From contig CAZWEM010000029.1 of the NCBI GenBank assembly GCA_964632315.1, positions 3,271 to 55,439 on the forward strand: 52,169 nucleotides of DNA, in the 5' to 3' direction. This DNA is from an uncultured archaeon. Its GTDB lineage: Archaea; Asgardarchaeota; Lokiarchaeia; Sigyniarchaeales; SOKP01. The notes under the pieces were generated by a model. The model had not been told where the DNA came from. It saw nothing but the letters and a program-made list of their open reading frames with translations, and did no database searches. The position numbers were made by a program, and so were the translations under genes. Below are positions 10,296 through 23,150 of the stretch, one piece after another (position 1 is the stretch's first letter; each line of letters begins with the position of its first letter).

Positions 10296-11435
10296 TTAGC
10301 GTTTCTTTAGAAAATGTCTATAAATAAGCATGTAATTTTTTACGCTAATTATTTTAGGGTTTCGTCTATAACTGGAGGAGATAGGTGCACTACAGCGAGA
10401 ACATAAATTAGAGGTGTGCATCCAATCTTTAAATTCATCTGCGTGAGCTGGATGTTTACAATTTGGACATAAAACTACCCCCCTATTCTTATCTTCGGGA
10501 AGTTTTGGTAATTTAAAGCAAAAAATACATTTGAAATCTTCTTCTGAAATCATAGAACCTTTAGGTCTATATTTATTCAAATCTCGGACTTTAGCTAGAC
10601 TTTGTGAACTTTTAGTTTTTTTTGTAGTTTTAGTCCTTTGAACACGAGCATGGGTAGGTCTAATTCTGGAGTTTTGAGTTCTATTAGAGGTTGTACGCGC
10701 GCTTCTGTTGGAGGAGGGACTTTGAATATTCGATCTGACTCTACGAGTCGTCTGGCTTCTAGGAGTTGCCAAATCATTTATTCTTCTCGTTCTTCGTGCT
10801 ATATACTCTCTTGTCAATTCGGGCATACTAGATTTTTTTCCAAGAAAGCCAAAAATGAATAAATTGAAAATGGATATGATAAGCAGTAGTAAAAGATTAA
10901 GATCTAAAGAAAAACGGAGTGGTGTAAGAGCAGAATTAAACACCTCACTTACATTATAAAAAACAACCCAGTATAAAATGATAAAAATAATTAGTGAAAA
11001 TGCTAAAATAAACCCTAGTGCTCTCGCGTTCATCGACTTAGTTCTAAAATAGATTACTCTGTATTTTTTAAAACATCTATAAAGTGAATGTGACCCATAG
11101 ATCACGAAAGGGAGGCCAAATATAAGACTCCAAAAGCTAAAATAAAGATTAGAGCCAGAAATTAAGTTTTCACCCAAGATTCCAGTAAATGACCCCCAGA
11201 TGGAATAAAAAACTCCAATTAACAAGGGTACAATCACAAAAAAAGCAGTATTATAGGGCGAATTAAACTCCCTATGCCGCTTGATATTTTCAAAGAGTTT
11301 AATCGTAAAAACTAACCAGAATCCAATTAAAATCCACGTTATGAGATTATTCAATGAAGCCGAAATTAGACCATGAATCACTCCAATTAAAAAAAAAATA
11401 GTTAGGATTATTAGAATAGCTTTTCTTTTTACCAT
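10296..11435 (-). CDS. Polytopic membrane protein with C-terminal RING-H2-like zinc finger (putative membrane-anchored E3 ligase)
   Basis: About six hydrophobic helices, R/S/T-rich linker, then CIFC-x16-CPNCKHPAHADEFKDW-x6-CSRC; last gene of the Ubl-E1-E2-JAMM run. Confidence 0.8.
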   Translation of the reverse strand: MVKRKAILIILTIFFLIGVIHGLISASLNNLITWILIGFWLVFTIKLFENIKRHREFNSPYNTAFFVIVPLLIGVFYSIWGSFTGILGENLISGSNLYFSFWSLIFGLPFVIYGSHSLYRCFKKYRVIYFRTKSMNARALGFILAFSLIIFIILYWVVFYNVSEVFNSALTPLRFSLDLNLLLLLIISIFNLFIFGFLGKKSSMPELTREYIARRTRRINDLATPRSQTTRRVRSNIQSPSSNRSARTTSNRTQNSRIRPTHARVQRTKTTKKTKSSQSLAKVRDLNKYRPKGSMISEEDFKCIFCFKLPKLPEDKNRGVVLCPNCKHPAHADEFKDWMHTSNLCSRCSAPISSSYRRNPKIISVKNYMLIYRHFLKKR

Positions 11436-11458
11436 GAACTAATTTCACCAGACTATCA

Positions 11459-12265
11459 TTATTCATCATATTCTAAATAAGCAGGTTTTCCTTCGATTAT
11501 GGGATTCATGAAATCCAAAATCTCAGGTAACATTCCGATATCTAAGTTACCTTTTATATCGAAGGGAACAGAGAACCACTTCTTTTTATTTAAATTAGCA
11601 CGATAAATTTCAAAACCTAGAGATTTTCCATTTATCTTATATGGATCGATGACTAAAGCAATCGCTTTTTCCCATAACTTTTGATACCTTGCTTGAGTTC
11701 CCAAGTCTTCTCTTGACATAAAACATCCATATGATGGGTGGGAATGATACCATCCACAGATGAATAATTTATTCTTTTTAATATCCTTAAATGCCCTTAC
11801 ATAATTTTTATAATCCTTGATTTCAGCATACACTGCAGTACCGTGTCCCATTGGATAGGCATCTTCGATATGTAGAATATCGGAATTATTATCATACTTT
11901 CCAGCTAATAGTCCGATAACCTCTACCCAATCTTCCCTTCTAATGCTAGAGTGAGCATATTTTAATGCGTGGCTTGTTATTTTAAGGATTGCCTTTACAG
12001 TTATTTGGATGTTTGCAGTTGGTTTTTCATAACTTGCAACAGTTTTTATAGGTTCCATTGGGATGGGTTCAAGATTATCCTTAACTTCAACATCTATATG
12101 ATTCAATGGTTGGATATCAATTAGCTCTGATGTTAACTCTTCTTGAAGTTCTTCTTCTATTTGTAATTCTGTATAAATCTCTTCTAGCAATTCTTGTTTT
12201 ATTTTCTCCTTAATTTTTTGTTTAATTGCTTCTTTGATAGCAGCGCTATTTTTATCGGTATTCAT
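11459..12265 (-). CDS. MPN+/JAMM metalloprotease (Rpn11/CSN5-like deconjugase)
   Basis: EVIGLL, GWYHSHPSYGCFMSRED (H-x-H-x7-S-x2-D), ALVIDP; likely start ATG 12265 behind GGTGA overlapping the E2 stop. Confidence 0.92.
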   Translation of the reverse strand: MNTDKNSAAIKEAIKQKIKEKIKQELLEEIYTELQIEEELQEELTSELIDIQPLNHIDVEVKDNLEPIPMEPIKTVASYEKPTANIQITVKAILKITSHALKYAHSSIRREDWVEVIGLLAGKYDNNSDILHIEDAYPMGHGTAVYAEIKDYKNYVRAFKDIKKNKLFICGWYHSHPSYGCFMSREDLGTQARYQKLWEKAIALVIDPYKINGKSLGFEIYRANLNKKKWFSVPFDIKGNLDIGMLPEILDFMNPIIEGKPAYLEYDE

Positions 12266-12272
12266 GGTATAC

Positions 12273-12800
12273 TCACCATTTATCCTTTGCATACTTCTTG
12301 ACTAAATTTTTTACCTTTTTCTCAAACATTTTTTGATTTTTCATCATTTCCAAGGCTGCCTTCTTATTAAAAACATCCGTTGGATTAACGTATTTTCCGC
12401 GAGTATTTAGCATTGCAATTATGGCTTGAACGACGGTAACAGCTGTTTTTGAAGGGCTCCATCCCCCTTTTTTTCCGACTAAAGAAGGATCGACTAGAGC
12501 TAGACAGATATTCCTCTGTCCTTTATATTCACTCGGTTTTGGCCAAAAGTTTGGATGCCAAATGGGTGTGTGTAATCTCACAAAAGGAGGTTGCTTTGGA
12601 TATTGAGCTGGAAATTTCATTTCTAATTTAAATAATCCTCCTGCGTATGCTGTTCCTTTAGGGCCTTTAATTGTTATAGCAACATGATCGATACTTTTTC
12701 TTTTCGGATCAAAGGGTTTTAGTTGAACAATTGTCCCTTCTTTCAACATTTTTTTAAGTCCAGCAAAATCTCGCGAAACTCGACTACTTCTTATACTCAT
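12273..12800 (-). CDS. Ubiquitin-conjugating enzyme E2 (UBC fold)
   Basis: IKGPKGTAYAGGLF, FPAQYPKQPP, IWHPN, catalytic ICL, WSPS. Confidence 0.93.
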   Translation of the reverse strand: MSIRSSRVSRDFAGLKKMLKEGTIVQLKPFDPKRKSIDHVAITIKGPKGTAYAGGLFKLEMKFPAQYPKQPPFVRLHTPIWHPNFWPKPSEYKGQRNICLALVDPSLVGKKGGWSPSKTAVTVVQAIIAMLNTRGKYVNPTDVFNKKAALEMMKNQKMFEKKVKNLVKKYAKDKW

Positions 12801-12859
12801 ATTTTTAACCCCGTATTTTATTTAATTTTGTTTAATTTATTTAGATTTTTATTAATTTT

Positions 12860-14095
12860 TTATTTTAACTTAAGCGTAACCATAATTTCTCCCCCTTTAA
12901 AACCCGCTATCGTCAAAAATTCATAATTTCTCAAATTATTTTCGATAACTGTCTTTTCTAAATCCAATATGATTATATCGTTAAAATCTTGTAAAGTCAT
13001 TAATGGTTCGAGGTCGGGATCCAATTGAAAACCATTCTTCTTCAAAATTTTTATAATATTAATACAAGGAGATCGTTTGCTCATTTTTATAACTACTCTT
13101 CTTACACCTTTCCCACATTGAATGCATTCAGGATTTCGTTTTTTCTCAATGTGATAAAATTTCATAGTCATCGCATTAAATATGACGTAATCTGATTCAG
13201 GTTTTCCTAAACCTTTATGTCCTTTTTCCCAATGAATGATTTTCACGGCTTCATGGGATTGGAGGGCAGAAATAACCGCATTAATCGTGATTATTCCTGG
13301 ATCGTGTCGATCAATTAATTTGACTATGTCATCTTGAGTATATTCGGGCAAGAAATTATATTTGTTTACTAATTCATTTGCAGTTTTTTGAATGAATTTA
13401 ATATCATTTAAATTTTTAGGATTCGGTTCTCTTTCAAATTTTTCCTTAAAAGCCATATCCCCTTTAAATACACAATGAATTCTTTTCCTAGGAATTCCCA
13501 CCACGGTGCAAGCAGCCATTTCATCGTTTTCTACCACCGGCAAGGGATTACATTCATAGCAAGCATTCTTATAAGGAAATATCGTGTAGATATGTCCATG
13601 ATAACCAGAAACTCCTCCATCAACTAAAGGTTTTCTAAACCGGATACATTGTGCATTTAAGTTCAATCTGGCGTTCATAGAATCAAGTCCTCCAATAATA
13701 ACATCAGCATTATAGTACAAGGAAGGATCTAACCTTTCTAAAGAGGTATGGTATCCTATGACGGTGATATTTGGATTAATTTCTCTCAATTTTTTTGCGG
13801 CTACAATAGCTTTAGGCTCACCTAGTCTAGCATCTGTAAAAAGAATTTGTCTGTTTAAATTTGAATGTTCAATAATGTCTAAATCGACGAGATCCAAATG
13901 ACCCACTCCTAACATAGCTAGGTTTTTAGCAATTTCACATCCTAATCCACCTACTCCAATAATTAAGACTCTCGCATTTTTAACTAATTTCTGAGACCAT
14001 CCTTCTAAACGGAATTGCCTGTCATATAAATCTCGTTCTTCCATTGACATTCCTTTTGCAAAAAAATCTGATTCTTTAACCAACCACATCACCAA
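12860..14095 (-). CDS. Ubiquitin-like activating enzyme E1 (ThiF/UBA3-like, with C-terminal ubiquitin-fold domain)
   Basis: LYDRQ, GVGGLG, DLDIIEHSNLNRQ, CYEC and CIQC zinc pairs, catalytic-Cys segment AACTVVGIPRKRIHC; exact start uncertain (14095 to about 14050). Confidence 0.93.
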   Translation of the reverse strand: MVMWLVKESDFFAKGMSMEERDLYDRQFRLEGWSQKLVKNARVLIIGVGGLGCEIAKNLAMLGVGHLDLVDLDIIEHSNLNRQILFTDARLGEPKAIVAAKKLREINPNITVIGYHTSLERLDPSLYYNADVIIGGLDSMNARLNLNAQCIRFRKPLVDGGVSGYHGHIYTIFPYKNACYECNPLPVVENDEMAACTVVGIPRKRIHCVFKGDMAFKEKFEREPNPKNLNDIKFIQKTANELVNKYNFLPEYTQDDIVKLIDRHDPGIITINAVISALQSHEAVKIIHWEKGHKGLGKPESDYVIFNAMTMKFYHIEKKRNPECIQCGKGVRRVVIKMSKRSPCINIIKILKKNGFQLDPDLEPLMTLQDFNDIIILDLEKTVIENNLRNYEFLTIAGFKGGEIMVTLKLK

Positions 14096-14106
14096 TAATA
14101 TTAATC

Positions 14107-14144
14107 AAAAAAATAAAAAAATTGAAGGGCTAAATGCCCTTTCA
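14107..14144 (-). terminator. Hairpin plus T-tract between Ubl gene and E1
   Basis: Minus strand reads AAGGGC-ATTTA-GCCCTT followed by CAATTTTTTTATTTTTTT. Confidence 0.55.
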
Positions 14145-14172
14145 TTATATTATACTCTATGAAGAGAAAGAT

Positions 14173-14505
14173 TTAAACGTATCCAGCAGTACTCGCAGGT
14201 ATTAAAAGAATATCGTCACCATCATTAACGTTATAGTCTTTTAATTGATTGCTTTCGTCCATCGTAACACCACCAGATGAGAGATGGAACTCATCTGGGT
14301 CAAGTCCAAATAAATTTCCTAAAGTATGTTTAATATCGCTTACCTGATTAGCATCATTCACGACCAATTTCTCTTTCTTTTCACCAGGACCAATAGTTGA
14401 CATAAAATACAATGTCACTTTTCGACCTGTAGAGGGGACCTTACTTGATGGGGTTTTAGATTTAACTGGTTCTAATTCCTCATCAAAATCGTCATCAAAA
14501 CTCAT
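14173..14505 (-). CDS. Ubiquitin-like (UFM1-like) modifier 1 with acidic N-terminal tail
   Basis: Beta-grasp pattern KVTLYF...LKDYNVNDGDDILLIPASTAG-YV; first gene of the E1/E2/JAMM/RING run; GTGA upstream. Confidence 0.85.
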   Translation of the reverse strand: MSFDDDFDEELEPVKSKTPSSKVPSTGRKVTLYFMSTIGPGEKKEKLVVNDANQVSDIKHTLGNLFGLDPDEFHLSSGGVTMDESNQLKDYNVNDGDDILLIPASTAGYV

Positions 14506-14762
14506 TCAAATCACTTTTTTTAAGGTTTTTTTTAGTTTTTATTCTGAAAACTTAATAATAACATCTAAAAATACTATTATAAAACCAATTGGAATGATTA
14601 TGAAGTTTTAAAAAATATCAAATTTCGTGAGTTTATAACCATAGTATATTATATCTATATATTTAATGGCAATCTATTAATGCATACTCAATAAAGTTTA
14701 ACACTTAAAGAGAAGAAATATTAATAATAACCTAAATTCTGAATATCACGCATTTTAAACCA

Positions 14763-15440
14763 ATGAGCACTCCAGATGAGGTTGAGCCACTTGTTCTCGG
14801 CTTAATTAAAGAATATTTACAAAAAAAGCCATTCTTTTCAATTGAAGACATAGTTACCTATATAAATAACAGAACTAGAGCAAAACCTTATGTAAATAAA
14901 AATAAAATTGAAAAAATTATTAAAAGACTCATTAAAAAGCGTAGAATTATACCTGGGACTAAATTAATGAAAAATAACATTATTGAGCATCCTATTAGAA
15001 ACGAAATATTTAATTTCGTGAAGAAAAATCCCTCTAATATCAATGAAATTATGAGAGCTTTAAACATCGGCAGTAATCAAACCCTATGGCACTTATCTTG
15101 TTTGGAAAAATTTCAATTCACGCGTTCAAGAGATATTGAAAATCAAAGAATAATTTTCCTCTATGAATCCGATCCGGAATTAGATGAAATTTATTTCTAC
15201 TTAAACCAAGATATTGTTCAAGAAATACTTGACCTGATGATACAAGAAAAGGAATCTCTAAAAGTATCTGATATTTCAAATCAGTTAAAAAAGAATTATA
15301 ATACTATAAAAAAGTATTTACAAATCTTAAGAAAGTTAAGAATAATTTCAATTGAGAAAGATAAGAAAAGAACCCTTTTTAAATTAAATTACAAGGAATA
15401 TGATAAATTTCAAGATTTAATCATTGGAGGAAAAAAATGA
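14763..15440 (+). CDS. Multi-winged-helix (ArsR/HTH-like) DNA-binding protein
   Basis: RNEIFNFVKKNPSNINEIMRAL..WHL..LEK and ISNQLKKNYNTIKKYLQILRKL wHTH repeats. Confidence 0.75.
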   Translation: MSTPDEVEPLVLGLIKEYLQKKPFFSIEDIVTYINNRTRAKPYVNKNKIEKIIKRLIKKRRIIPGTKLMKNNIIEHPIRNEIFNFVKKNPSNINEIMRALNIGSNQTLWHLSCLEKFQFTRSRDIENQRIIFLYESDPELDEIYFYLNQDIVQEILDLMIQEKESLKVSDISNQLKKNYNTIKKYLQILRKLRIISIEKDKKRTLFKLNYKEYDKFQDLIIGGKK

Positions 15441-15519
15441 ATACTTCACAATTATTCCAATGGATTTTATATGGTGAATCATCTATTAAAAATTTAGAAA
15501 ATAATCTATCCTAAAAATT

Positions 15520-16314
15520 ATGAAGAAAAATTCTCGCATTTATTGGACATTAGCTTTGTATCTTATTTTTACAGTATTATACCTACTTTTCTTCATTTTA
15601 AAGATAGATAATTTTCCCTTATTTATCATTTTGACAATCTCTAGCGCTATGGTACTTTCCAGTAGCACTATTTATACTATTTCCCGATCTACAATCACTC
15701 ATAAAAGCCCCACCCCCAAAATTAAACTTTCTCCAACAAAGAAAACATTGGGTAAATTTACTTCAGAATTAATTGAAGATTATTTTGAAGCAATGCCAAT
15801 AATCGACCAGTACGCCGATTCAGACGCCCCTTATGAGGAAATTTCCCGAATAGACGAATATGTTTTTACAGAATTTAATAACGAGGATCTAATGAAAATT
15901 GATAGCTTAAAATTATCAAAAATGGACAAGATTTTTTTTCTGAGGGAAATGCTTTACTTTGAACCTAATGAAAGGAGATATTTAATCAATGAGATGCTTA
16001 AATATCAAGAAGACCCAAATATACCCGTTTCATATACTCCATTAATAACCCCTTTTGGTATTGAAGATAAATTACGAATCTATTCTCGGTCATTGATAGA
16101 ACCAGGAGAAAAAACAAAGATAATTATTATTGAAAAATCAGATTTTATTAGCGAAGTGAAACTTAAAATTGGGACTTTATTCGATTATGATTTGGATGAT
16201 TTTGTTTTATCGTCTGGAGGGATTATATTAGATGAAAAATTGCAAATTAATCATTATAATATCGAAGATGATGATGAAATTGCTATTATACCCTCAAGAA
16301 AAGAAAGAAAATAA
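15520..16314 (+). CDS. Two-TM membrane protein with C-terminal Ubl domain paralogous to the modifiers (no terminal Gly)
   Basis: Two N-terminal hydrophobic helices; C-terminal 80 aa about 31/80 identical (manual, ungapped) to Ubl1 (PGEK, LSSGG, DE, IP) ending SRKERK. Confidence 0.8.
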   Translation: MKKNSRIYWTLALYLIFTVLYLLFFILKIDNFPLFIILTISSAMVLSSSTIYTISRSTITHKSPTPKIKLSPTKKTLGKFTSELIEDYFEAMPIIDQYADSDAPYEEISRIDEYVFTEFNNEDLMKIDSLKLSKMDKIFFLREMLYFEPNERRYLINEMLKYQEDPNIPVSYTPLITPFGIEDKLRIYSRSLIEPGEKTKIIIIEKSDFISEVKLKIGTLFDYDLDDFVLSSGGIILDEKLQINHYNIEDDDEIAIIPSRKERK

Positions 16315-16315
16315 A

Positions 16316-16735
16316 TTAAATGTTTATTTTACCAGCTGTACTAGCTGGAATTAATAATATATCATCTCCATCACTCACATGATAATCACTCAAATGAGTT
16401 CTTTCATCCATAGTGATACCTCCAGAAGATAAATGAAAATCGACTGGATCCAGTCCAAAAATATTAGCGACGGTTTCTTTAATTGCACCAACAAGATTTC
16501 CTGTATTTACTAATAATTTTTGCTTTTTTTCCCCTGGACCAATAGTAGACATAAAAAAGACGGATATTTTGTCACCTTCAACGGATACCTCTGGTGTCTT
16601 AGTTGAAGGTTCTAAATCTGGAGACTTTGAAGGCGGTCCCTCAAGCGATTCTTCTGAATCATCTCCTAAATCTTCATCTAGATCTTCATCAAATTCTTCA
16701 TCGAATTCATCATCAAACTCTTCGTCAAAATCCAT
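16316..16735 (-). CDS. Ubiquitin-like (UFM1-like) modifier 2 with long acidic N-terminal tail
   Basis: True start likely MDFDEEF at 16735 (GGTG upstream); core 56/80 identical to Ubl1 by manual alignment; ends LIPASTAG-KINI. Confidence 0.85.
   Translation of the reverse strand: MDFDEEFDDEFDEEFDEDLDEDLGDDSEESLEGPPSKSPDLEPSTKTPEVSVEGDKISVFFMSTIGPGEKKQKLLVNTGNLVGAIKETVANIFGLDPVDFHLSSGGITMDERTHLSDYHVSDGDDILLIPASTAGKINI
16669..16732 (-). repeat. Imperfect 12-bp/4-aa coding repeat (DFDE EFDD EFDE EFDE DLDE DL)
   Basis: F/L every fourth residue in a D/E tract; tcttcatc/tcatc units on + strand. Confidence 0.65.
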
Positions 16736-16871: not shown

Positions 16872-18029
16872 ATGGATGAAAAACCTATTCCCAAGCAACA
16901 GATTCGAGAAAAACTTCCTAAAGAGGAATTAGATGCAGATTTTGATTCTGACTTGTTGAGAAAAATAAGGAAGGAAAGATTTAAATTGAGCAAGGAAAAA
17001 GAGGAATGGGAAAAAATATTGAACAAAATCCAAGAATATGATGAAAGTATCGAAGATCTAGAAAAGAAAAGAAAACAAAAAGAAATCGAACTTAGAAATC
17101 TAGTAAATCAGAATGAAAAACTTAAAAATGAGTTAGAAAAAAATAATAATGAAATTAAACAAGCAAATAGCATTCTAAAATCGAGAGAGAAAGAATTAAA
17201 TCAAAAAATTGATGATTTAAATAAATATAAACAGAAATTGGATAAGATTAGAGATGATATTGAAGAAGAAAGAAAAAAATTAAAACAAGAGAAAGATAAA
17301 GCTGAAGAACGCATAGAAAAAATTAAAACCAAAATTCCAGGCATGGAAAGAAGAGAGAATGCGTTAGAACGAACAGTCAATGATTTTGAAGATAAACTTC
17401 AAAATCTAAGGAATGAACTGAGAGAATTAACTAACAAAAGAAACTCTCTTAACAAGGAATTAAGTGATTTAAAGAGACAAATGGTGGATGAAAAAAATAG
17501 AATAGATGAAGAGAAAAAAAAATTAAAAGAAGAAAGAGATAAAAACCGAATAAAAAAGAATGAATTAAAATCATTAAATCGAGATATAGAAAATAAACAA
17601 GACAAACTAGAAAAGGAACAAGATAAAAGAGAAAGAGAAATCAAGTCGTTGGAACGGAAAAAATCGAATCTGGAATCAAGATTAAAGGAATTAGAAAAAA
17701 AAATTCCAAAATATGAGAACCAGTATTATTCTAATCAAGATAAAATAAAAGATTCTGAAGAAAAGATTAAAAAATTAAATTCTGACGTAAAAAAGTTGGA
17801 AAATGAAAAAGCAAAGCTCGCTTCTGAAATCAGAAATAAAGAAAAAGCGATAATGAAAGAAGATTCAAGAATAAGAGAAGAAAAAAATGCTATCAAAAAA
17901 GAAAGAGAAAAACTCGAAAAAGATAAAGCTCGTTTTATTAGGGAAAAAAGAGATTTTGAAAAATCATTAATAAAAGCAAAGAGTATACCAAAAACAAAAA
18001 TTAAGTCAAAAACTCCTTCTAAATATTAG
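16872..18029 (+). CDS. Long coiled-coil protein, function unknown
   Basis: About 340 aa of nearly uninterrupted K/E/L heptads, no ATPase motifs; likely ATG 16872. Confidence 0.75.
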   Translation: MDEKPIPKQQIREKLPKEELDADFDSDLLRKIRKERFKLSKEKEEWEKILNKIQEYDESIEDLEKKRKQKEIELRNLVNQNEKLKNELEKNNNEIKQANSILKSREKELNQKIDDLNKYKQKLDKIRDDIEEERKKLKQEKDKAEERIEKIKTKIPGMERRENALERTVNDFEDKLQNLRNELRELTNKRNSLNKELSDLKRQMVDEKNRIDEEKKKLKEERDKNRIKKNELKSLNRDIENKQDKLEKEQDKREREIKSLERKKSNLESRLKELEKKIPKYENQYYSNQDKIKDSEEKIKKLNSDVKKLENEKAKLASEIRNKEKAIMKEDSRIREEKNAIKKEREKLEKDKARFIREKRDFEKSLIKAKSIPKTKIKSKTPSKY

Positions 18030-18065: not shown

Positions 18066-19100
18066 ATGAAAATCCCAAAAGGAATTGAAGGTGATTATAT
18101 CGAAACTAAGACTCCATCACTTTTTTTTGATGTTAAAGGCATACTTCATCCTAGTGATAGAAAGATTTGCTACTTGAGATTCGTACCAGATGAAAATGGT
18201 GATCGTGTTAAAGATGGGCTTAAATACAAAAAAGTTTATGATTTAGAGGAGAGAGAACTTTTAATCCAAAAGAAATATCCACAATATCATTTTTATTTTC
18301 CAGAATATGATATGAATCTTCAAAGTGTGAAAAATGAGGAAATAAAGAGGATATATTCTCCACGCCGATACCTCAATTTGTTAAGAAATAAAGATAACCT
18401 AACCAAATTTGAAAAAAGGAGTCTTGATCTATGTGATCTTTTAAATTCTGAAGGAAGTATACCAGAAGGCCAAATTGGTATAACTGGATCACCTATGATT
18501 GGATTAAATTTAAAAAAGTCTGACATTGATCTGATAATATATGGTACAAAAGTTTGCCGAGACTTACAGCCCCATCTGGAGTCACTTTTTAAAAAGACTA
18601 ATTTTTTTAGACACTATACTCTTAAAGAGTATGAAAAGCATTATAAGTGGAGGGTTGGTGGATCTGATATAAGTTTCGACCAATTTATGAGAACAGAAAA
18701 ACGTAAGCTCCATCAGGGAAAATTTTATGGCGTTGATTTTTTTATTCGTTATATTAAGAGTCCTTATGATTGGAAAGGTACATTTTATCAATATAAATTT
18801 AAAAATCTTGGAAGAATATCTTTGATCGGTAAAATATTAGACATTGATGATGGACTATTTACCCCTTGTTCTTATAAAGTAAACTGCGAAAAAATAATTA
18901 CTAGTGATTTTGGGTCATATAAAAATTATTCGAATTTAAATGAAGTATTCTCATATAGAGGTAGGTTTTGTGAGCAAGCTAGAGTGGGAGAGAGATTCTT
19001 AATTAATGGAAAACTTGAGGAAGTTCATCATGAAGGTGTTACTCATTATAGAGTTATATTAACCCATCAAAAACTTGATAAAATGATTCTAATGACGTAA
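18066..19100 (+). CDS. Archaeal nucleotidyltransferase-domain protein (COG1665-like)
   Basis: GITGS...SDIDLIIYG (GS/DxD), N-terminal KGILHP..YLR, C-terminal SYRGRF.EQ. Confidence 0.78.
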   Translation: MKIPKGIEGDYIETKTPSLFFDVKGILHPSDRKICYLRFVPDENGDRVKDGLKYKKVYDLEERELLIQKKYPQYHFYFPEYDMNLQSVKNEEIKRIYSPRRYLNLLRNKDNLTKFEKRSLDLCDLLNSEGSIPEGQIGITGSPMIGLNLKKSDIDLIIYGTKVCRDLQPHLESLFKKTNFFRHYTLKEYEKHYKWRVGGSDISFDQFMRTEKRKLHQGKFYGVDFFIRYIKSPYDWKGTFYQYKFKNLGRISLIGKILDIDDGLFTPCSYKVNCEKIITSDFGSYKNYSNLNEVFSYRGRFCEQARVGERFLINGKLEEVHHEGVTHYRVILTHQKLDKMILMT

Positions 19101-19160: not shown

Positions 19161-20174
19161 ATGATTGAACAATTAAAAAAAACTGTTGAATTAGATCCAA
19201 GCGATTTAGATGGTTGGATAAATTTAGGAGACGCTTATTACGATTCAGATAATTTTGATAATGCAATAGGAGCATATAGAGAAGCGTTAAAAATTAATCC
19301 TGACTTCTCGGAGGTTTGGAATAACCTCGGACTCGCCTATTCAATGAAGGGCGAGTATGATAAGGCAATTGAATGCTATGAGAAGGTTTTAGAAATAGAA
19401 CCAGATGATGCTATAACTTATTATAATATGGCTTTTGCTTATGAAGATAAAAATGAACTAGAGCTTGCCCTCAAATATTATAAAAAAGCTTTAGAAATTG
19501 ATCCGAGCTATACTGATGCTTTTAACAATATCGCGTTAATTTATCGGGATTTACAAAAGTATGAGAAAGCAATTGATTCATATGAAAAAGCAATCAATAT
19601 TAATCCTGATGAGGTAACACTTTATACAAATTTAGCAACTGTCTATTATGACAAAAAAGACCTTAATAACGCAATAGCCTATTATCAAAAAGCTTTAGAA
19701 ATTGAACCAGAAAATGTTGAAATTTGGTTAGAATTAGGAGATCTTGGATATGAAAAATCTGATTTTGATCTTGCCATGAAATGTTATAAGAAAGCATTAA
19801 AAAATGATCCAAGTAGTATCGAAGCATGGAATAACCTCGGCTTAGTTTATACAATTCAAGAAGAATATGAAAAATCTATCAATTGTTATAAAAAAGCTTT
19901 AAAAATCGATCCAAATGACTCAATATTAAATGATAACCTTGGATTTAGTTATTATGCAATAAATGATTACGAAAAAGCAATCAAATATTATAAGAAATCT
20001 CTCAATATTAATCCTAACAATATTCCTTCATTAAAGAAATTAGGAACTCTGTATTTCGATGTGAAGAAAGATTACCAAAAAGCAATCTCCCTCTTTAAAA
20101 GAGTAATTGAACTTGATCCTAATGATGATGATACAAAGACAATACTCGAAGCATATTCTGATAAACCTAAATGA
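19161..20174 (+). CDS. Tetratricopeptide repeat protein (about 9-10 x 34 aa)
   Basis: Repeated W.NLG..Y....Y..AI..Y.KAL.I.P. Confidence 0.95.
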   Translation: MIEQLKKTVELDPSDLDGWINLGDAYYDSDNFDNAIGAYREALKINPDFSEVWNNLGLAYSMKGEYDKAIECYEKVLEIEPDDAITYYNMAFAYEDKNELELALKYYKKALEIDPSYTDAFNNIALIYRDLQKYEKAIDSYEKAININPDEVTLYTNLATVYYDKKDLNNAIAYYQKALEIEPENVEIWLELGDLGYEKSDFDLAMKCYKKALKNDPSSIEAWNNLGLVYTIQEEYEKSINCYKKALKIDPNDSILNDNLGFSYYAINDYEKAIKYYKKSLNINPNNIPSLKKLGTLYFDVKKDYQKAISLFKRVIELDPNDDDTKTILEAYSDKPK

Positions 20175-20240
20175 CCAAAAACTTGTTTCTTAATGTATAT
20201 ATGATTAACCTTATTATTTAAGTACATTTTTCCTTATTTA

Positions 20241-21551
20241 ATGAAATTTTATAATGCTGATTTACATATCCACTCCCCACATTCGATTGCAGTCTCTAAA
20301 GCTTTGAATTTGGATACAATGATTGTAACAAGCAGAAAGAAAGGGTTAAATATTTTAGGAACAGGCGACGTGCTTCAACCTGATTGGTTTAATTACATGA
20401 AACAGAATCTCCAAAAAGATAGAGATGGTTCATTTTCTTACAAAGGGACGTACTTCATTTTACAATCAGAAATTGAAGATGAAGAGAGCATTCATCACGT
20501 AGTGCTTTTTCCCGATTTTAATATTGTACTCGAAATTCAAAAAAAATTAGCACCACATTCTAAAAATATAAAAAATGAATGGGGTGGAAGACCAAGAGTA
20601 AATTTACCTCCTGGAAGACTTGTTGATATAATTACTGATTACGGTGCAATTATTGGACCTGCTCATGCATTTACTCCATTCAAGGCTATATTTCGACAAA
20701 ATAAATATAAATCTTTAGAAGATTGTTATGGAGGATCAACAAAAAAAGTTTCTTTTTTAGAATTAGGATTATCTGCCAATACTCAACTTGCTGACAGGCT
20801 GAACTTTCTTAAAGATGTTTCTTTTTTAAGTAACAGCGACGCACATTCAGAAAGCCCCCGTTCTTTAGGGCGTGAGTTTAATCAGTTTGAAATTGAATCT
20901 CCCTCTTTTGAGGAAATTCTACTCGCAATTAGACGTAGAGATGGAAGGAAAATTGTATTAAATGTTGGATTGCATCCAAAACTCGGAAAGTATTATAATA
21001 TGTTCTGTAGCAAATGTAGGAGGAGAGTGATTTTTAAAAAATCTAATGATCAACCAGATATGATTTTAAAAAGATATCGAATTACAGATGATTTTATAAT
21101 TATCTATAGTAATAACCCCAAAACTAATAAACACAATTACATTGAGAAGGTCTCAAAGAATAAAGTGATTTGTCCCGCTTGTAAACAATACGAAGATAAA
21201 AATTACAAAATTAAACTTGGTGTGAGTGAAAGAATTGATGTGATCTCTACATATAAGACACCCATTCATCCTAGTCATCGTCCTAAATATGTCAACGCAA
21301 TTCCTCTTTTTGATATTATTCGTTCTATAAAAGGAATCAAAAGTGTGAGTAGCAAGACAGTTTTTAATGAGTATGAACAAATAATAGAGAAACTAGGAAC
21401 TGAATTTAACATCTTAATTGATCTCTCATTAGAGACGATTGAAAAATTCGATTCTAATATTGCATCAGTAATAAAAGCAATGAGAAACAACGAGATAAAT
21501 TATTCTCCCGGAGGAGGGGGAACATATGGACAAATAAAACTTGATATTTGA
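20241..21551 (+). CDS. PHP-family endonuclease Q-like protein (TIGR00375-like)
   Basis: ADLHIHS, GTGD, PAHAFTP, ELGLSA, SNSDAHS, LGRE, LGKY, CSKC...CPAC, GV.ER, PGGGGTYG. Confidence 0.85.
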   Translation: MKFYNADLHIHSPHSIAVSKALNLDTMIVTSRKKGLNILGTGDVLQPDWFNYMKQNLQKDRDGSFSYKGTYFILQSEIEDEESIHHVVLFPDFNIVLEIQKKLAPHSKNIKNEWGGRPRVNLPPGRLVDIITDYGAIIGPAHAFTPFKAIFRQNKYKSLEDCYGGSTKKVSFLELGLSANTQLADRLNFLKDVSFLSNSDAHSESPRSLGREFNQFEIESPSFEEILLAIRRRDGRKIVLNVGLHPKLGKYYNMFCSKCRRRVIFKKSNDQPDMILKRYRITDDFIIIYSNNPKTNKHNYIEKVSKNKVICPACKQYEDKNYKIKLGVSERIDVISTYKTPIHPSHRPKYVNAIPLFDIIRSIKGIKSVSSKTVFNEYEQIIEKLGTEFNILIDLSLETIEKFDSNIASVIKAMRNNEINYSPGGGGTYGQIKLDI

Positions 21552-21564
21552 TATGAGACAATAT

Positions 21565-21804
21565 CTAAATATTAAATTCAAGAGTGAGGTTTAGTAATTC
21601 TCCACACTTATTACAACATAACCAATCAAATATTTTCAATGTAACTACCATTAATTCTAACTCATTTCGGGGAAATTGATTTCTGAACTTTTTAACATAT
21701 TCGCAGGTGGGACAACTAATAATTGCTCTTACTTTAATTATGTCATCTCTATTTTCCGATGGCAGAAGAGCTTGTTCACTGTCCTTATTTGATTCAATTT
21801 CCAC
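21565..21804 (-). CDS. Small zinc-ribbon protein
   Basis: CPTC...CCNKCG; GAGG upstream of GTG start. Confidence 0.65.
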   Translation of the reverse strand: MEIESNKDSEQALLPSENRDDIIKVRAIISCPTCEYVKKFRNQFPRNELELMVVTLKIFDWLCCNKCGELLNLTLEFNI

Positions 21805-21992
21805 GATTCAGAATACCTCGTGAAGAAATAATAATAATTCAATCTTATAAATTTATTTCTCTTGCTTATTGTCTTATTATTCCTACGAATAAGTTGAAGT
21901 AAGACAAGATCATATTAAGAAGATGATACATCAATATTACTTCCTTATATTATTCTGATATAATACTCATATTATATGTTAACTTCTTCCAA

Positions 21993-23150
21993 ATGCAGGT
22001 TATTCTTATGAATGATGAAAATTACGACCTCTCAGAACTAGCCAAATCAAGAATGTCAGTACGCTCTCGATTTAATGAAATAGCTAAACAAAATCAAGGT
22101 TCCAAAACTGGTTTAAGTTTAGATAACGATAATTATTTGTCTGAACTATTAAAAGTTTTGAAAATCAAATCCTTAGTAGTTGGTGTTGGAGGTGCGGGGA
22201 ATAATACAGTTTCTAGAATGAATGACTTGGGTTCAAGTGAAATTGAGACTTTAAATATAAATACTGATGCCCATGATCTATTTTATTCAAATGCTAATCA
22301 AAAGTTGCTAATTGGCAAGGAAACATGTAACGGTCTTGGCTCTGGTAATGATCCACAAATAGGAGCTACTGCTGCAGAGGAAGATGTTGAAAGATTATCA
22401 GATATATTAACTACGGACGTTGTATTTATTACTTTTGGTTTGGGTGGAGGTACTGGTACAGGCGCTGCTCCTATAATCGCGAGAGAGGCGAAAAAAAATG
22501 GAGCTACTGTTGTTTCTTTCTGCTCCGTTCCATTTACTTCAGAAGGAAAAGAAAGAACAGGAAGAGCTAAATTGGGTCTGAAACACCTTGCTGAATTTTC
22601 AGATACGTTGATTCCCATTCCAAATGATAATTTGTTACGATTTAACCAGAACTTACCAATATTGACTGGATTTAAGATAATGGATGAAGTACTTATCAGG
22701 TGTATTAGGGAAATTCTCAATTTAATAAATAATTGCGGACTAATTAACATTGATTATGCAGATGTTAGAAAGGTTTTAGAAAAAAAGGGTAATTATCCTT
22801 CTGGGCTAATAGGAATAACTGAATCTTTGGGTGATGATGGTGATTTGGTAAAAAAAGCAAAACTAGCATTAAACAACCCTCTATTAGAACCAGATCCTAC
22901 TAAAGTTGACAACTGTATAGTCTCTGTTGCTGGAGATCATCGTATCTCTCTGTCAAAAATAGATAAAATTATCTCTGCGATTTCTAACGAAATCCCGGAC
23001 GAAGCTTCTTTAAAGTTTGGTACATCCCTCAACCCCCTACTAAGATCAAAAATTCGCATAATGGCGTTAGGCAGGGGTCCTATTTCTCCTTATGTGACCG
23101 CAGCAGTTAACGATACTAACTTCCCTCAATCTAATCTTAATCTACTATGA
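21993..23150 (+). CDS. ftsZ: Cell division protein FtsZ
   Basis: GVGGAGNN, NTD, GLGSG.DP, GLGGGTGTGAAP, PF..EG..R, T7 loop GLINIDYAD. Confidence 0.93.
   Translation: MQVILMNDENYDLSELAKSRMSVRSRFNEIAKQNQGSKTGLSLDNDNYLSELLKVLKIKSLVVGVGGAGNNTVSRMNDLGSSEIETLNINTDAHDLFYSNANQKLLIGKETCNGLGSGNDPQIGATAAEEDVERLSDILTTDVVFITFGLGGGTGTGAAPIIAREAKKNGATVVSFCSVPFTSEGKERTGRAKLGLKHLAEFSDTLIPIPNDNLLRFNQNLPILTGFKIMDEVLIRCIREILNLINNCGLINIDYADVRKVLEKKGNYPSGLIGITESLGDDGDLVKKAKLALNNPLLEPDPTKVDNCIVSVAGDHRISLSKIDKIISAISNEIPDEASLKFGTSLNPLLRSKIRIMALGRGPISPYVTAAVNDTNFPQSNLNLL

Follow-up and report, generated by a model that had tools for sequence, protein, structure and literature searches.

Asgard ubiquitin systems inform the origin of eukaryotic protein tagging, and published work on them rests on a ubiquitin ending in Gly-Gly and on small soluble RING proteins. 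An operon of Caldiarchaeum subterraneum encodes a ubiquitin, an E1-like and an E2-like protein, a small RING finger protein and an Rpn11-like JAMM protease (PMC3082918; PMC5654768; PMC6043591); this system has been biochemically reconstituted, and its JAMM protease trims the ubiquitin precursor (PMC5654768; PMC6043591). Asgard Gly-Gly cascades have been linked to genes of the endosomal sorting machinery ESCRT, with an E1, E2 and RING protein from Helarchaeia and a pro-ubiquitin in which Gly-Gly is followed by SPKN (bioRxiv 10.1101/2023.07.25.550441). A discrete ubiquitin gene region has been described in Lokiarchaeota (Hatano 2022, PMC9192718), and an Asgard ubiquitin gene cluster as such is already known (PMC5654768; PMC9192718). 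Here we analyse such a locus in a 52,169-nt stretch of DNA from an uncultured archaeon (Asgardarchaeota; Lokiarchaeia; Sigyniarchaeales; SOKP01), positions 3,271-55,439 of the forward strand of contig CAZWEM010000029.1 in an assembly that is 99.5% complete (GCA_964632315.1). We call the whole stretch the window, and coordinates are positions within it unless another contig is given. Our reading, to which we assign a probability of about 0.72, is that the locus represents, in its Lokiarchaeial form, a ubiquitin-type conjugation system that is encoded in an operon and found across the Asgard archaea ("system A"), in which tags ending in Ala-Gly are handled by an E1 and E2 of the operon, a JAMM protease and a membrane RING protein. 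It is probably the Lokiarchaeial ubiquitin region of PMC9192718. In the literature searched, which did not include the Spang 2015 description of the Lokiarchaeum cluster, we came across no account, for Asgard archaea, of tags ending in Ala-Gly, of a RING protein in the membrane or of an anchored ubiquitin-like protein.

The heart of the locus is a run of five genes on the minus strand, encoding a ubiquitin-family modifier (Ubl1; 14173-14505, 110 residues), an activating enzyme (E1; 12860-14095, 411 residues), a conjugating enzyme (E2; 12273-12800, 175 residues), an Rpn11-like JAMM/MPN+ metalloprotease (11459-12292, 277 residues) and a candidate polytopic membrane RING ligase, or E3, which we call TM-RING (10296-11435, 379 residues). 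From Ubl1 to TM-RING, successive genes are 77 bp apart, 59 bp apart, overlapping by 20 bp (E2 and JAMM) and 23 bp apart. The original prediction, made from the letters alone, had drawn eight open reading frames (ORFs) here and claimed a complete conjugation set; all eight lie where it placed them, with the operon gaps it gave, and each of the classes of modifier, E1, E2, JAMM and RING-type E3 could be identified by sequence or fold.

The gene arrangement is conserved far beyond chance. A search with the E1 recovered 78 loci, all in genomes of Promethearchaeota of the Lokiarchaeial type and with 70-84% identity across the 78 species, and in about 60 of them the full order is kept: amidohydrolase, FolE2, TM-RING, JAMM, E2, E1, Ubl1, a winged helix-turn-helix protein (wHTH), a membrane-anchored ubiquitin-like (Ubl) protein (TM-Ubl), a second modifier (Ubl2), a coiled-coil protein and a 344-residue protein. 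FolE2 and the amidohydrolase, on the TM-RING side, are housekeeping genes. The E2 is the most conserved gene of the block (77-94% identical across loci, mostly about 90%), and conservation at this level between housekeeping flanks argues for a core cellular function rather than an accessory island. Beyond the Lokiarchaeial family, nine loci from seven other families have a TM-RING homologue adjoining the JAMM gene and, contig permitting, the E2, E1 and Ubl genes as well. A Ubl gene lies directly upstream of the E1 in every locus examined; JAMM is kept between E2 and TM-RING in all loci, distant families included; and a TM-RING profile finds a match in 146 of the 301 Asgard genomes sampled. The company that TM-RING keeps in other families thus points to a five-gene core, Ubl-E1-E2-JAMM-TM-RING, that is Asgard-wide. 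The coiled-coil gene adjoins a Ubl gene in three other families, and wHTH, TM-Ubl and Ubl2, none of which was seen in the loci of distant families, were found in the Lokiarchaeial one only.

Ubl1 is a member of the ubiquitin family, scoring 27.3 bits on Pfam ubiquitin (PF00240; E-value 3.2e-6) where the cut-off is 25.4; TM-Ubl and Ubl2 match the same model at 8.9e-7 and 4.7e-4. It begins with a disordered acidic tail that carries the motif VKSKTP, continues as a beta-grasp domain and ends in IPASTAG followed by a two-residue extension, YV; in its AlphaFold model (predicted local distance difference test, pLDDT, 75.5) residues 1-23 are disordered. When this model was compared with solved structures using Foldseek, the best matches were to Caldiarchaeum ubiquitin (6fno and 6fj7; E 1.3e-7, TM-score 0.78 by target), followed by ubiquitin variants, ISG15, Hub1, NEDD8 and SUMO. 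Two VIA fold searches gave 50 best rows with Z of 11.6-14.6, all of the ubiquitin type and with ubiquitin and ISG15 at Z 13-14; the types among the listed rows are ubiquitin, ISG15, NEDD8, SUMO, Hub1, FAT10 and UBL domains. A modifier profile run against the PDB likewise recovered ubiquitin chains. Ubl2 (16316-16735, minus strand) ends in IPASTAG plus KINI and has a longer, very acidic N-terminal tail (net charge -22 over its first 45 residues) with the motif STKTP; among the modifiers generally, the acidic tail is 25-60 residues long. A third Ala-Gly paralogue is encoded on contig C39 of the same genome.

In about 50 of 71 species the stop codon follows directly on ...LLIPASTAG of the Ubl1 orthologue, and in the remainder, the YV of the window included, 1-4 unconserved residues lie past STAG. 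Orthologues of Ubl2 end in IPAS[TIV]AG, mostly at the stop codon, and the overall form is IP[AVH]S[TIV]AG, with IP[AVH]STAG retained in distant Asgard families. The original prediction of an Ala-Gly, single-Gly terminus is thereby upheld, since the end is invariant in about 70 Lokiarchaeial orthologues and in the distant families and in none of them is Gly-Gly. A search of 1.84 billion representative proteins returned 565 Ubl relatives; among the best 150 of these, 16 proteins have no residue past Ala-Gly and 23 have an extension of 1-6 residues. The same 150 include head-to-tail poly-Ubl proteins of three units (P0121) and two units (P0122), in which ...STAG or ...SQAG of one unit is joined directly to the acidic tail of the next (the contigs of P0121 are only 1.2 kb long, without flanking genes). 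Tandem units joined at Ala-Gly, as in polyubiquitin precursors, argue for cleavage and activation after Ala-Gly. The last Lys of the modifier stands 19 residues before its end, so that trypsin would leave a remnant of the DYNVNDGDDILLIPASTAG type.

Ala-Gly Ubl domains were also observed at the C-terminus of larger proteins (P0125, P0126, P0145, P0137, P0151; L101:15072-16829). By eye, the N-terminal parts of these fusions are Roadblock/LC7-like, zinc-ribbon, HerA/FtsK-like P-loop ATPase and vWA regions; the HerA/FtsK-like fusion ends in IPSSRAG and the vWA fusion in IPASHAG plus five residues. Whole fusion proteins might be conjugated via such an end.

The E1, the E2 and the JAMM protein each retain the motifs of their class. 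The E1 matches Pfam ThiF at 3.8e-60, with its residues 25-324 aligned to a model of 238 positions and some 60 residues inserted. It is a single chain that comprises an adenylation domain, an inserted segment with the catalytic Cys (AACTVVGIPRKRIHC), CxxC pairs and, at the C-terminus, a domain probably of the ubiquitin fold; GVGGLG, NLNRQ and the catalytic segment AACT...HC can all be read in the translation. With its adenylation domain and catalytic-Cys insertion it is an E1 of the canonical type, and its best relatives in the PDB are SAE2 (2.8e-39), UBA1 (1.3e-37) and UBA3 (2.4e-35; residues 35-335), with UBA5 at 1.2e-15. The E2 covers positions 2-138 of the 140 in Pfam UQ_con (2.5e-26); it has the UBC fold, the HPN motif and a catalytic Cys (NICLALV), with extra residues on either side of the Cys and a net charge of +24, and its PDB relatives are Ubc15, UBE2R, UBE2T, Ubc13 and UBC9 at 1e-14 to 1e-11. 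The JAMM protein matches Pfam JAB at 1.7e-16, and its motif E...HSH-x7-S-x2-D, read from the translation as HSHPSYGCFMSRED with an upstream Glu, is intact behind an N-terminal extension of about 90 charged, helical residues; we presume that it is both the precursor-trimming and the deconjugating enzyme. The SAE2/UBA1/UBA3-like E1 and the UQ_con E2 mark these enzymes as of the ubiquitin/SUMO/NEDD8 type and bear out their earlier assignment to the ubiquitin/NEDD8 type.

The last gene of the run encodes an unannotated protein that differs from the small soluble RING of archaeal ubiquitin operons, being 379 residues long with six predicted membrane helices. The AlphaFold model of TM-RING (pLDDT 69.7) places helices at residues 4-25, 28-57, 63-84, 101-123, 137-165 and 179-197, which hydropathy supports only in part as six membrane helices; beyond them follow a juxtamembrane helix, a disordered Arg/Ser/Thr-rich linker (residues 224-283, net charge +18), a small alpha/beta region with the zinc finger and, at the C-terminus, another helix. 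The first and last membrane helices have basic residues next to them, so that by the positive-inside rule both ends of the protein, and the finger with them, would be cytoplasmic. That the E3 would be a six-helix membrane protein conserved beside the operon had been foreseen, and TM-RING does follow JAMM in the loci examined, those of distant families included. Every public homologue goes by the name "hypothetical protein" and is without a Pfam domain, and surveys of Asgard E3 ligases that rely on domains are therefore likely to have missed it. A fold search of the Atlas with TM-RING returned its own Promethearchaeota cluster (TM-score 0.43) and weak RING-bearing clusters. For its membrane domain, the fold searches gave rows for ZnT1, MSP-1, a designed repeat protein and HRD1, none of them a convincing relative, their scores falling in the range of unrelated helical bundles; for HRD1, the best row (Z 6.1, root mean square deviation 3.9, 113 residues) is within the noise for such bundles.

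The finger itself (residues 303-348; 10392-10529, minus strand) has as proposed zinc ligands C303/C306, C323/C326, H331/E334 and C345/C348, with W338 as the E2-binding Trp. All seven of the Cys and His residues in this list are invariant among 24 C-terminal domains, 11 of them from more distant genomes, and at least 90% of the 24 have E334 and W338. A profile built from these domains and compared with the PDB matches the RING-H2 of RNF24 best (1.7e-5), then EL5 (0.007), RNF4 (0.02) and HRD1 (0.06), with Arkadia also below RNF24; in the alignment ligands 3 to 6 correspond to C326, residue 328, H331 and E334 in turn, and W338 coincides with the RING-H2 Trp of RNF24 that binds the E2. In the canonical C3H2C3 set of eight cross-brace ligands, ligand 4 is His; residue 328 is His in the window but Tyr or Phe in most species, and in a distant paralogue ligand 6 is His. 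The finger is probably a derivative of RING-H2 in which an upstream Cys, part of a CPxC knuckle, replaces ligand 4 and Glu replaces the Cys of ligand 6. Foldseek with the TM-RING model returns RING and U-box folds, among them the RING of HRD1 (6f98, probability 0.85) and that of TRIM37 (3lrq, 0.89).

In Lokiarchaeia the core has further companions. TM-Ubl (15520-16314, plus strand) has two N-terminal membrane helices by hydropathy, a conserved helical middle region and a C-terminal Ubl domain (Pfam ubiquitin at residues 198-254), and ends in IPSRKERK. Its orthologues are well aligned (mean column identity 67% over 45 sequences) and among about 58 of them the C-terminus is IPSRK, IPLRK or IPRNK and never Gly. 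The paralogue tethered to the membrane that had been proposed here is thus found as described, and lacking the terminal Gly in every species it cannot be activated. A complex prediction for full-length TM-RING and TM-Ubl scored 0.00, a value that says nothing for or against binding. The wHTH gene (14763-15440, plus strand), divergent from the operon, encodes a tandem winged-helix protein of the ArsR/HTH_24 type that matches HTH_5 in two stretches (1.4e-10); its nearest Atlas clusters are Promethearchaeota HTH_24/HTH_5 proteins (score 0.96), and it is a probable transcriptional regulator. We considered wHTH as a winged-helix scaffold akin to UFL1/DDRGK1 and rejected it on account of these ArsR/HTH_24 matches, the UFL1 and DDRGK models matching another protein (on contig C59, below).

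The Lys/Glu-rich coiled-coil protein (16872-18029, plus strand, taking the second Met as the start, as judged by orthologues) ends in IKSKTPSKY, the same rare motif as that of the Ubl1 tail. K and P of V-K-S-K-T-P are invariant in the Ubl tails, and the orthologues of the coiled-coil protein have I-R-E-K-T-P near the start (residues 11-16) and, at their C-terminal end, I-K-[ST]-K-T-P-S in one to four copies. When the 4753 ORFs of the genome were scanned for [IVLM][KR][STAE]KTP, only three occurrences were found, in Ubl1, in the Ala-Gly paralogue on contig C39 and at the C-terminus of the coiled-coil protein; the strict motif is confined to proteins of this system and is in that sense specific to it. 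The relaxed motif [KR]-x-K-T-P is not enriched genome-wide (33 observed, 23 expected). We regard the coiled-coil protein as a candidate substrate or partner, and psi-K-S-K-T-P as a site that may serve for acceptance or docking of the tag.

The same genome encodes a second set of ubiquitin-type proteins. A ubiquitin that ends in ...ATQAGG plus one Cys lies on contig C8 (L079:9861-10160; PF00240 at 7.2e-10) among unrelated neighbours (an HTH protein, a solute-binding protein and DUF362) and is 92-98% identical in 21 of the 25 family genomes searched. A second canonical E1, E1b, is found on contig C34 (L080:7757-9349); it has 530 residues, its own catalytic-Cys segment and a long charged insertion, and its neighbours are a subtilase, a HAD hydrolase, a DnaJ protein and an LRR protein, with no E2 adjacent, unlike in genus g4. 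A second E2, E2b, is spread over two frames that meet near 12900 on contig C3 (12520-13117, minus strand) and is 70-75% identical to an intact 170-residue E2 beside E1b in another genus; a frameshift, a pseudogene or faulty assembly could account for the split. As a separate observation, a 195-residue frame at about 117-251 on the 5-kb contig C95 (L083) has a weakly UQ_con/RWD-like N-terminal part (E 0.002) and a Cys/His-rich, RING-like tail.

The two sets can be told apart by their inheritance. TM-RING has no full match in five genomes, four from a single genus (90-100% complete) and the fifth a closed genome from the same order. None of the five yielded an operon-type E1: what matches best is their E1b orthologue, 40-47% identical across the adenylation domain. 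In four of them no Ala-Gly Ubl was seen. All five keep E1b (49-64% identity) and a UBC E2, and the Gly-Gly ubiquitin is kept in all three that were searched of the genus's four genomes. One operon-less genome has its E2 gene some 800 bp away from E1b, and this E2 shares only 38% identity with that of the operon. The closed genome, of 4.36 Mb, contains a 40-residue remnant of the RING finger with an internal stop codon (G213:C1:594201-594320; L104:9199-9315); such a remnant, in a genome without the operon E1 or an Ala-Gly Ubl, argues that the system was lost in some lineages. The joint absence of operon E1, Ala-Gly Ubl and TM-RING where the Gly-Gly set stays indicates that the two sets are inherited as separate units, and it follows that the Ala-Gly tags are most likely activated by the operon E1 and the Gly-Gly ubiquitin by E1b. 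The original prediction had assigned the operon E1 to the Ala-Gly proteins and not to a Gly-Gly ubiquitin encoded elsewhere, and this is borne out indirectly: such a ubiquitin exists, but it has its own E1b and E2b.

Several points nevertheless weigh against system A as we have drawn it. Taken singly, the RING sequence of TM-RING stays below every RING threshold of Pfam (zf-RING_16, 16.8 bits with a cut-off of 27.4), Pfam gave only stray sub-threshold matches on 51 TM-RING orthologues, the RING region of the model has only moderate confidence (pLDDT 60-80), and with Tyr or Phe at ligand 4 in most species and Glu at ligand 6 a zinc site could be left incomplete. No solved structure is a convincing relative of the membrane domain, with unrelated helical rows at Z 7-9 and no Foldseek match to it with E below 0.4. 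The genome has other RING proteins, and TM-RING need not be the sole E3. The restriction of TM-Ubl and wHTH to the Lokiarchaeial family puts both outside the conserved core. That the operon E1 accepts a penultimate Ala is deduced from linkage, and given that E2b is apparently frameshifted, the operon E2 might also serve the Gly-Gly ubiquitin in this archaeon.

Canonical E1s are known with Gly-Gly tags, and we know of no solved complex of a canonical E1 with a tag ending in Ala-Gly; taken with the Gly-Gly ubiquitin conserved elsewhere in the genomes of the family and the split E2b, this leaves room for operon enzymes that serve the Gly-Gly ubiquitin while the Ala-Gly proteins act as unconjugated adaptors or decoys. 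We find this very improbable. The Gly of the Ala-Gly family is invariant where the residues past it are variable or absent, tandem precursors of it exist, the Ubl gene is always next to the E1, and the operon E1, the Ala-Gly Ubl and TM-RING disappear together from genomes that keep Gly-Gly ubiquitin, E1b and E2b; TM-Ubl, by contrast, is truly non-conjugatable and has lost its Gly in every species. To an anti-virus defence module of the bacterial Bil kind or of the Cap2/Cap3 kind found in the cyclic-oligonucleotide-based antiphage signalling system (CBASS), we give hardly any credence, although the same four classes (Ubl, E1, E2, JAB) come together there and PADLOC partially matches the adenylation domain of the E1 with CBASS E1-E2 models (2.8e-17) and JAMM with a JAB model (8e-7). 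These matches cover generic domains only and are far weaker than those to eukaryotic E1s, PADLOC has no match for the Ubl, TM-RING or TM-Ubl, and the block is single-copy, fixed among housekeeping genes and about 80-90% identical across 78 species, unlike a defence island. A role like that of ERAD, the degradation pathway associated with the endoplasmic reticulum, is of another order, for it would be one possible physiology within system A, competing there with a regulatory, SUMO-like role. On it, membrane proteins that are misfolded or in surplus would be marked by TM-RING, extracted by Cdc48 or PAN and degraded by the proteasome, and TM-Ubl would be a counterpart of Herp/Usa1/TMUB1. The suggestion comes from architecture: in its polytopic membrane domain, disordered linker and cytosolic finger of the RING-H2 type TM-RING runs parallel to Hrd1, a conserved anchored and non-conjugatable Ubl is encoded beside TM-RING, and Cdc48 and 20S proteasomes do occur in archaea (PMC13328587). 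We nonetheless hold it to be unlikely, if worth keeping in view: the membrane domain bears no convincing structural likeness to that of Hrd1, no gene for a Derlin, Hrd3, translocon component, Cdc48 or proteasome lies within the conserved block and the locus gives no hint of a translocon, TM-Ubl was seen in the Lokiarchaeial family alone, and the sole candidate substrate marked by the motif is a soluble coiled-coil protein. That motif and that protein are what suggest the SUMO-like alternative.

The original prediction had also called the modifier UFM1-like and the locus a mosaic of UFM1-like and ubiquitin-type parts, and here it did not stand. A single terminal Gly is common to UFM1, ATG8 and ATG12, and the tail of human UFM1 reads IIP-x4-G plus two residues. 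The Ala-Gly modifiers share with UFM1 the single C-terminal Gly that would be exposed after a short extension (0-6 residues) and the I-P-x4-G register of the tail, and could on these grounds be Asgard Ufm1 homologues, or the ancestor of UFM1, run by ubiquitin-type enzymes in a UFMylation-like process at the membrane. Structure-based Ufm1 homologues have been reported in nine Asgard clades, some of them not full-length and some with several matched regions (PMC12962969), a description that the fused and tandem Ala-Gly forms would fit (partial, several matched regions), the paper giving no comparable accessions. We judge the idea improbable. The Pfam family Ufm1 (PF03671) matches none of the 301 Asgard genomes; in this genome its best match is an unrelated ORF at E 0.5, and it does not appear among the Pfam matches of the Ubl proteins at E up to 0.1. 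The score of the modifier is above the Pfam threshold for ubiquitin, and its nearest listed structures are Caldiarchaeum ubiquitin and other ubiquitin-type proteins; UFM1 is not among the 50 listed rows of three Ubl1 fold searches, though all rows are beta-grasp and the ranking by itself is compatible with kinship. Nor do the operon enzymes form the UFM1 set of UBA5-type E1, UFC1, UfSP and UFL1-DDRGK1: the E1 is 24 orders of magnitude closer to SAE2/UBA1 than to UBA5, the E2 is of the UQ_con type, the protease belongs to the JAMM class instead of being a Cys protease like UfSP, and for E3 there is a RING-like protein. A UFL1/DDRGK-like protein is nonetheless encoded elsewhere in the genome, which counts in favour of the kinship. 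It lies on the minus strand of contig C59 (L108:6975-9374) and has 799 residues, with matches to DDRGK (2.6e-18) and E3_UFM1_ligase/UFL1 (8.3e-18), PCI winged-helix repeats and a C-terminal VPS28 (1.9e-5). This architecture suggests a scaffold akin to UFL1/DDRGK1 that has been joined to an ESCRT-I module, and its gene is remote from all Ubl genes.

Returning to system A, a sequence of events can be proposed by homology and from the published reconstitution of the Caldiarchaeum system. Ubl1, Ubl2 and the copy on contig C39 would be beta-grasp modifiers of the ubiquitin family whose conjugating end is Ala-Gly. JAMM would most likely trim the extension of 1-6 residues, or the next tandem unit, past the Gly, and would probably also reverse conjugation. 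The operon E1 would adenylate the terminal Gly, form a thioester and hand the tag to the UBC-type E2 of the operon, and with the finger of TM-RING facing the cytoplasm, tagging would take place at the inner face of the cell membrane. In Lokiarchaeia, TM-Ubl would most likely be a fixed docking or regulatory Ubl, and wHTH would probably regulate transcription. The motif psi-K-S-K-T-P in the modifier tail and at the ends of the coiled-coil protein may be an acceptor or docking site that allows chains and a built-in substrate, much as psi-K-x-E does for SUMO.

The most conserved Lokiarchaeial cassette differs from what published work rests on in its Ala-Gly tag, its unannotated integral-membrane ligase and, in Lokiarchaeia, its anchored pseudo-tag. 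Were the proposed biochemistry true, ubiquitin-style tagging at a membrane would be older than eukaryotes, and an origin of ERAD-like degradation or of sorting could be tested with a few small recombinant proteins; two independently inherited sets of E1, E2 and tag in one archaeon would also be a natural system for studying how an E1 discriminates between the last two residues of its tag. A bolder synthesis, which we offer as speculative and rather doubtful, is that Asgard archaea have two separate ubiquitin-type systems, of which the Ala-Gly one is membrane-based and motif-directed: an E2 held by the RING and the anchored Ubl would tag psi-K-S-K-T-P lysines, on the tag's own tail to form chains and on the coiled-coil protein, as a prokaryotic forerunner or analogue of membrane ubiquitylation (in ERAD or sorting) with SUMO-like recognition. 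Linked to this is the proposal that the Ala-Gly family corresponds to the Asgard Ufm1 homologues of the 2026 study (PMC12962969), with UFM1 descending from a tag once handled by a canonical E1, E2 and RING.

The remaining features of the region can be given briefly. The 344-residue protein (18066-19100, plus strand) has no Pfam match, is 50-61% identical among orthologues and stands beside the coiled-coil gene in nearly all Lokiarchaeial loci. Further downstream (19161-23150, plus strand) are genes for a nine-repeat TPR protein, a 436-residue protein without a Pfam match and a protein of the FtsZ/tubulin family (Tubulin, 2.2e-37). The sequencing runs that contain the stretch are salt-marsh and marsh metagenomes, with no RNA run listed among them.

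To place system A among known systems, we compared it with the tagging pathways that it most resembles. With the UFM1 system it has in common a tag that would end in a single Gly exposed by trimming and a proposed action at a membrane, and it differs in a modifier that lies outside the Ufm1 family by both Pfam and fold ranking and in all four enzyme classes. Its likeness to the SUMO pathway consists in SAE2 being the best solved relative of the E1 and in a flexible N-terminal tail with a Lys motif that recurs in a neighbouring protein. The SUMO consensus is psi-K-x-E, and SUMO2/3 use their N-terminal tail for chains; the motif here is psi-K-S-K-T-P, not psi-K-x-E, and UBC9 is not a nearer relative of the E2 than are Cdc34, UBE2T and Ubc13. 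With Hrd1/synoviolin and its Herp/Usa1/TMUB1 partners the shared elements are a polytopic domain, a flexible linker, a predicted cytosolic finger of the RING-H2 type with its Trp and an anchored, non-conjugated Ubl, and the HRD1 RING is among both the fold and the profile matches of the TM-RING finger; homology of the membrane domains is not demonstrable, however, the RING ligands are altered, and the locus has no Hrd3, Der1 or Cdc48-recruiting partner, so that the resemblance is architectural only.

The closest comparisons are with archaeal systems. The Asgard Gly-Gly cascades come from the same phylum and likewise combine a eukaryote-type E1, E2 and RING with short C-terminal extensions that need removal, but theirs is a Gly-Gly ubiquitin with a soluble RING that has an N-terminal loop, and in the present genome a Gly-Gly ubiquitin with E1b and E2b runs parallel to the Ala-Gly operon and is inherited apart from it. 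The Caldiarchaeum operon differs in that its tag ends in Gly-Gly, whereas the Lokiarchaeial tag ends in Ala-Gly and has an acidic tail with K-S-K-T-P; in that its E3 is a small soluble RING, whereas the Lokiarchaeial one is a six-helix membrane protein with a variant RING (Glu as ligand 6); and in the absence of the anchored Gly-less Ubl, second modifier, regulator and motif-bearing coiled-coil protein that the Lokiarchaeial locus adds. The two nevertheless share the same five protein classes, with a catalytic-Cys insertion in the E1, a UBC-type E2 and an Rpn11-like JAMM, and among solved structures Foldseek ranks Caldiarchaeum ubiquitin first for Ubl1. Judged by its sequences, then, the locus is a variant of the known archaeal ubiquitin operon and not a UFM1 system.

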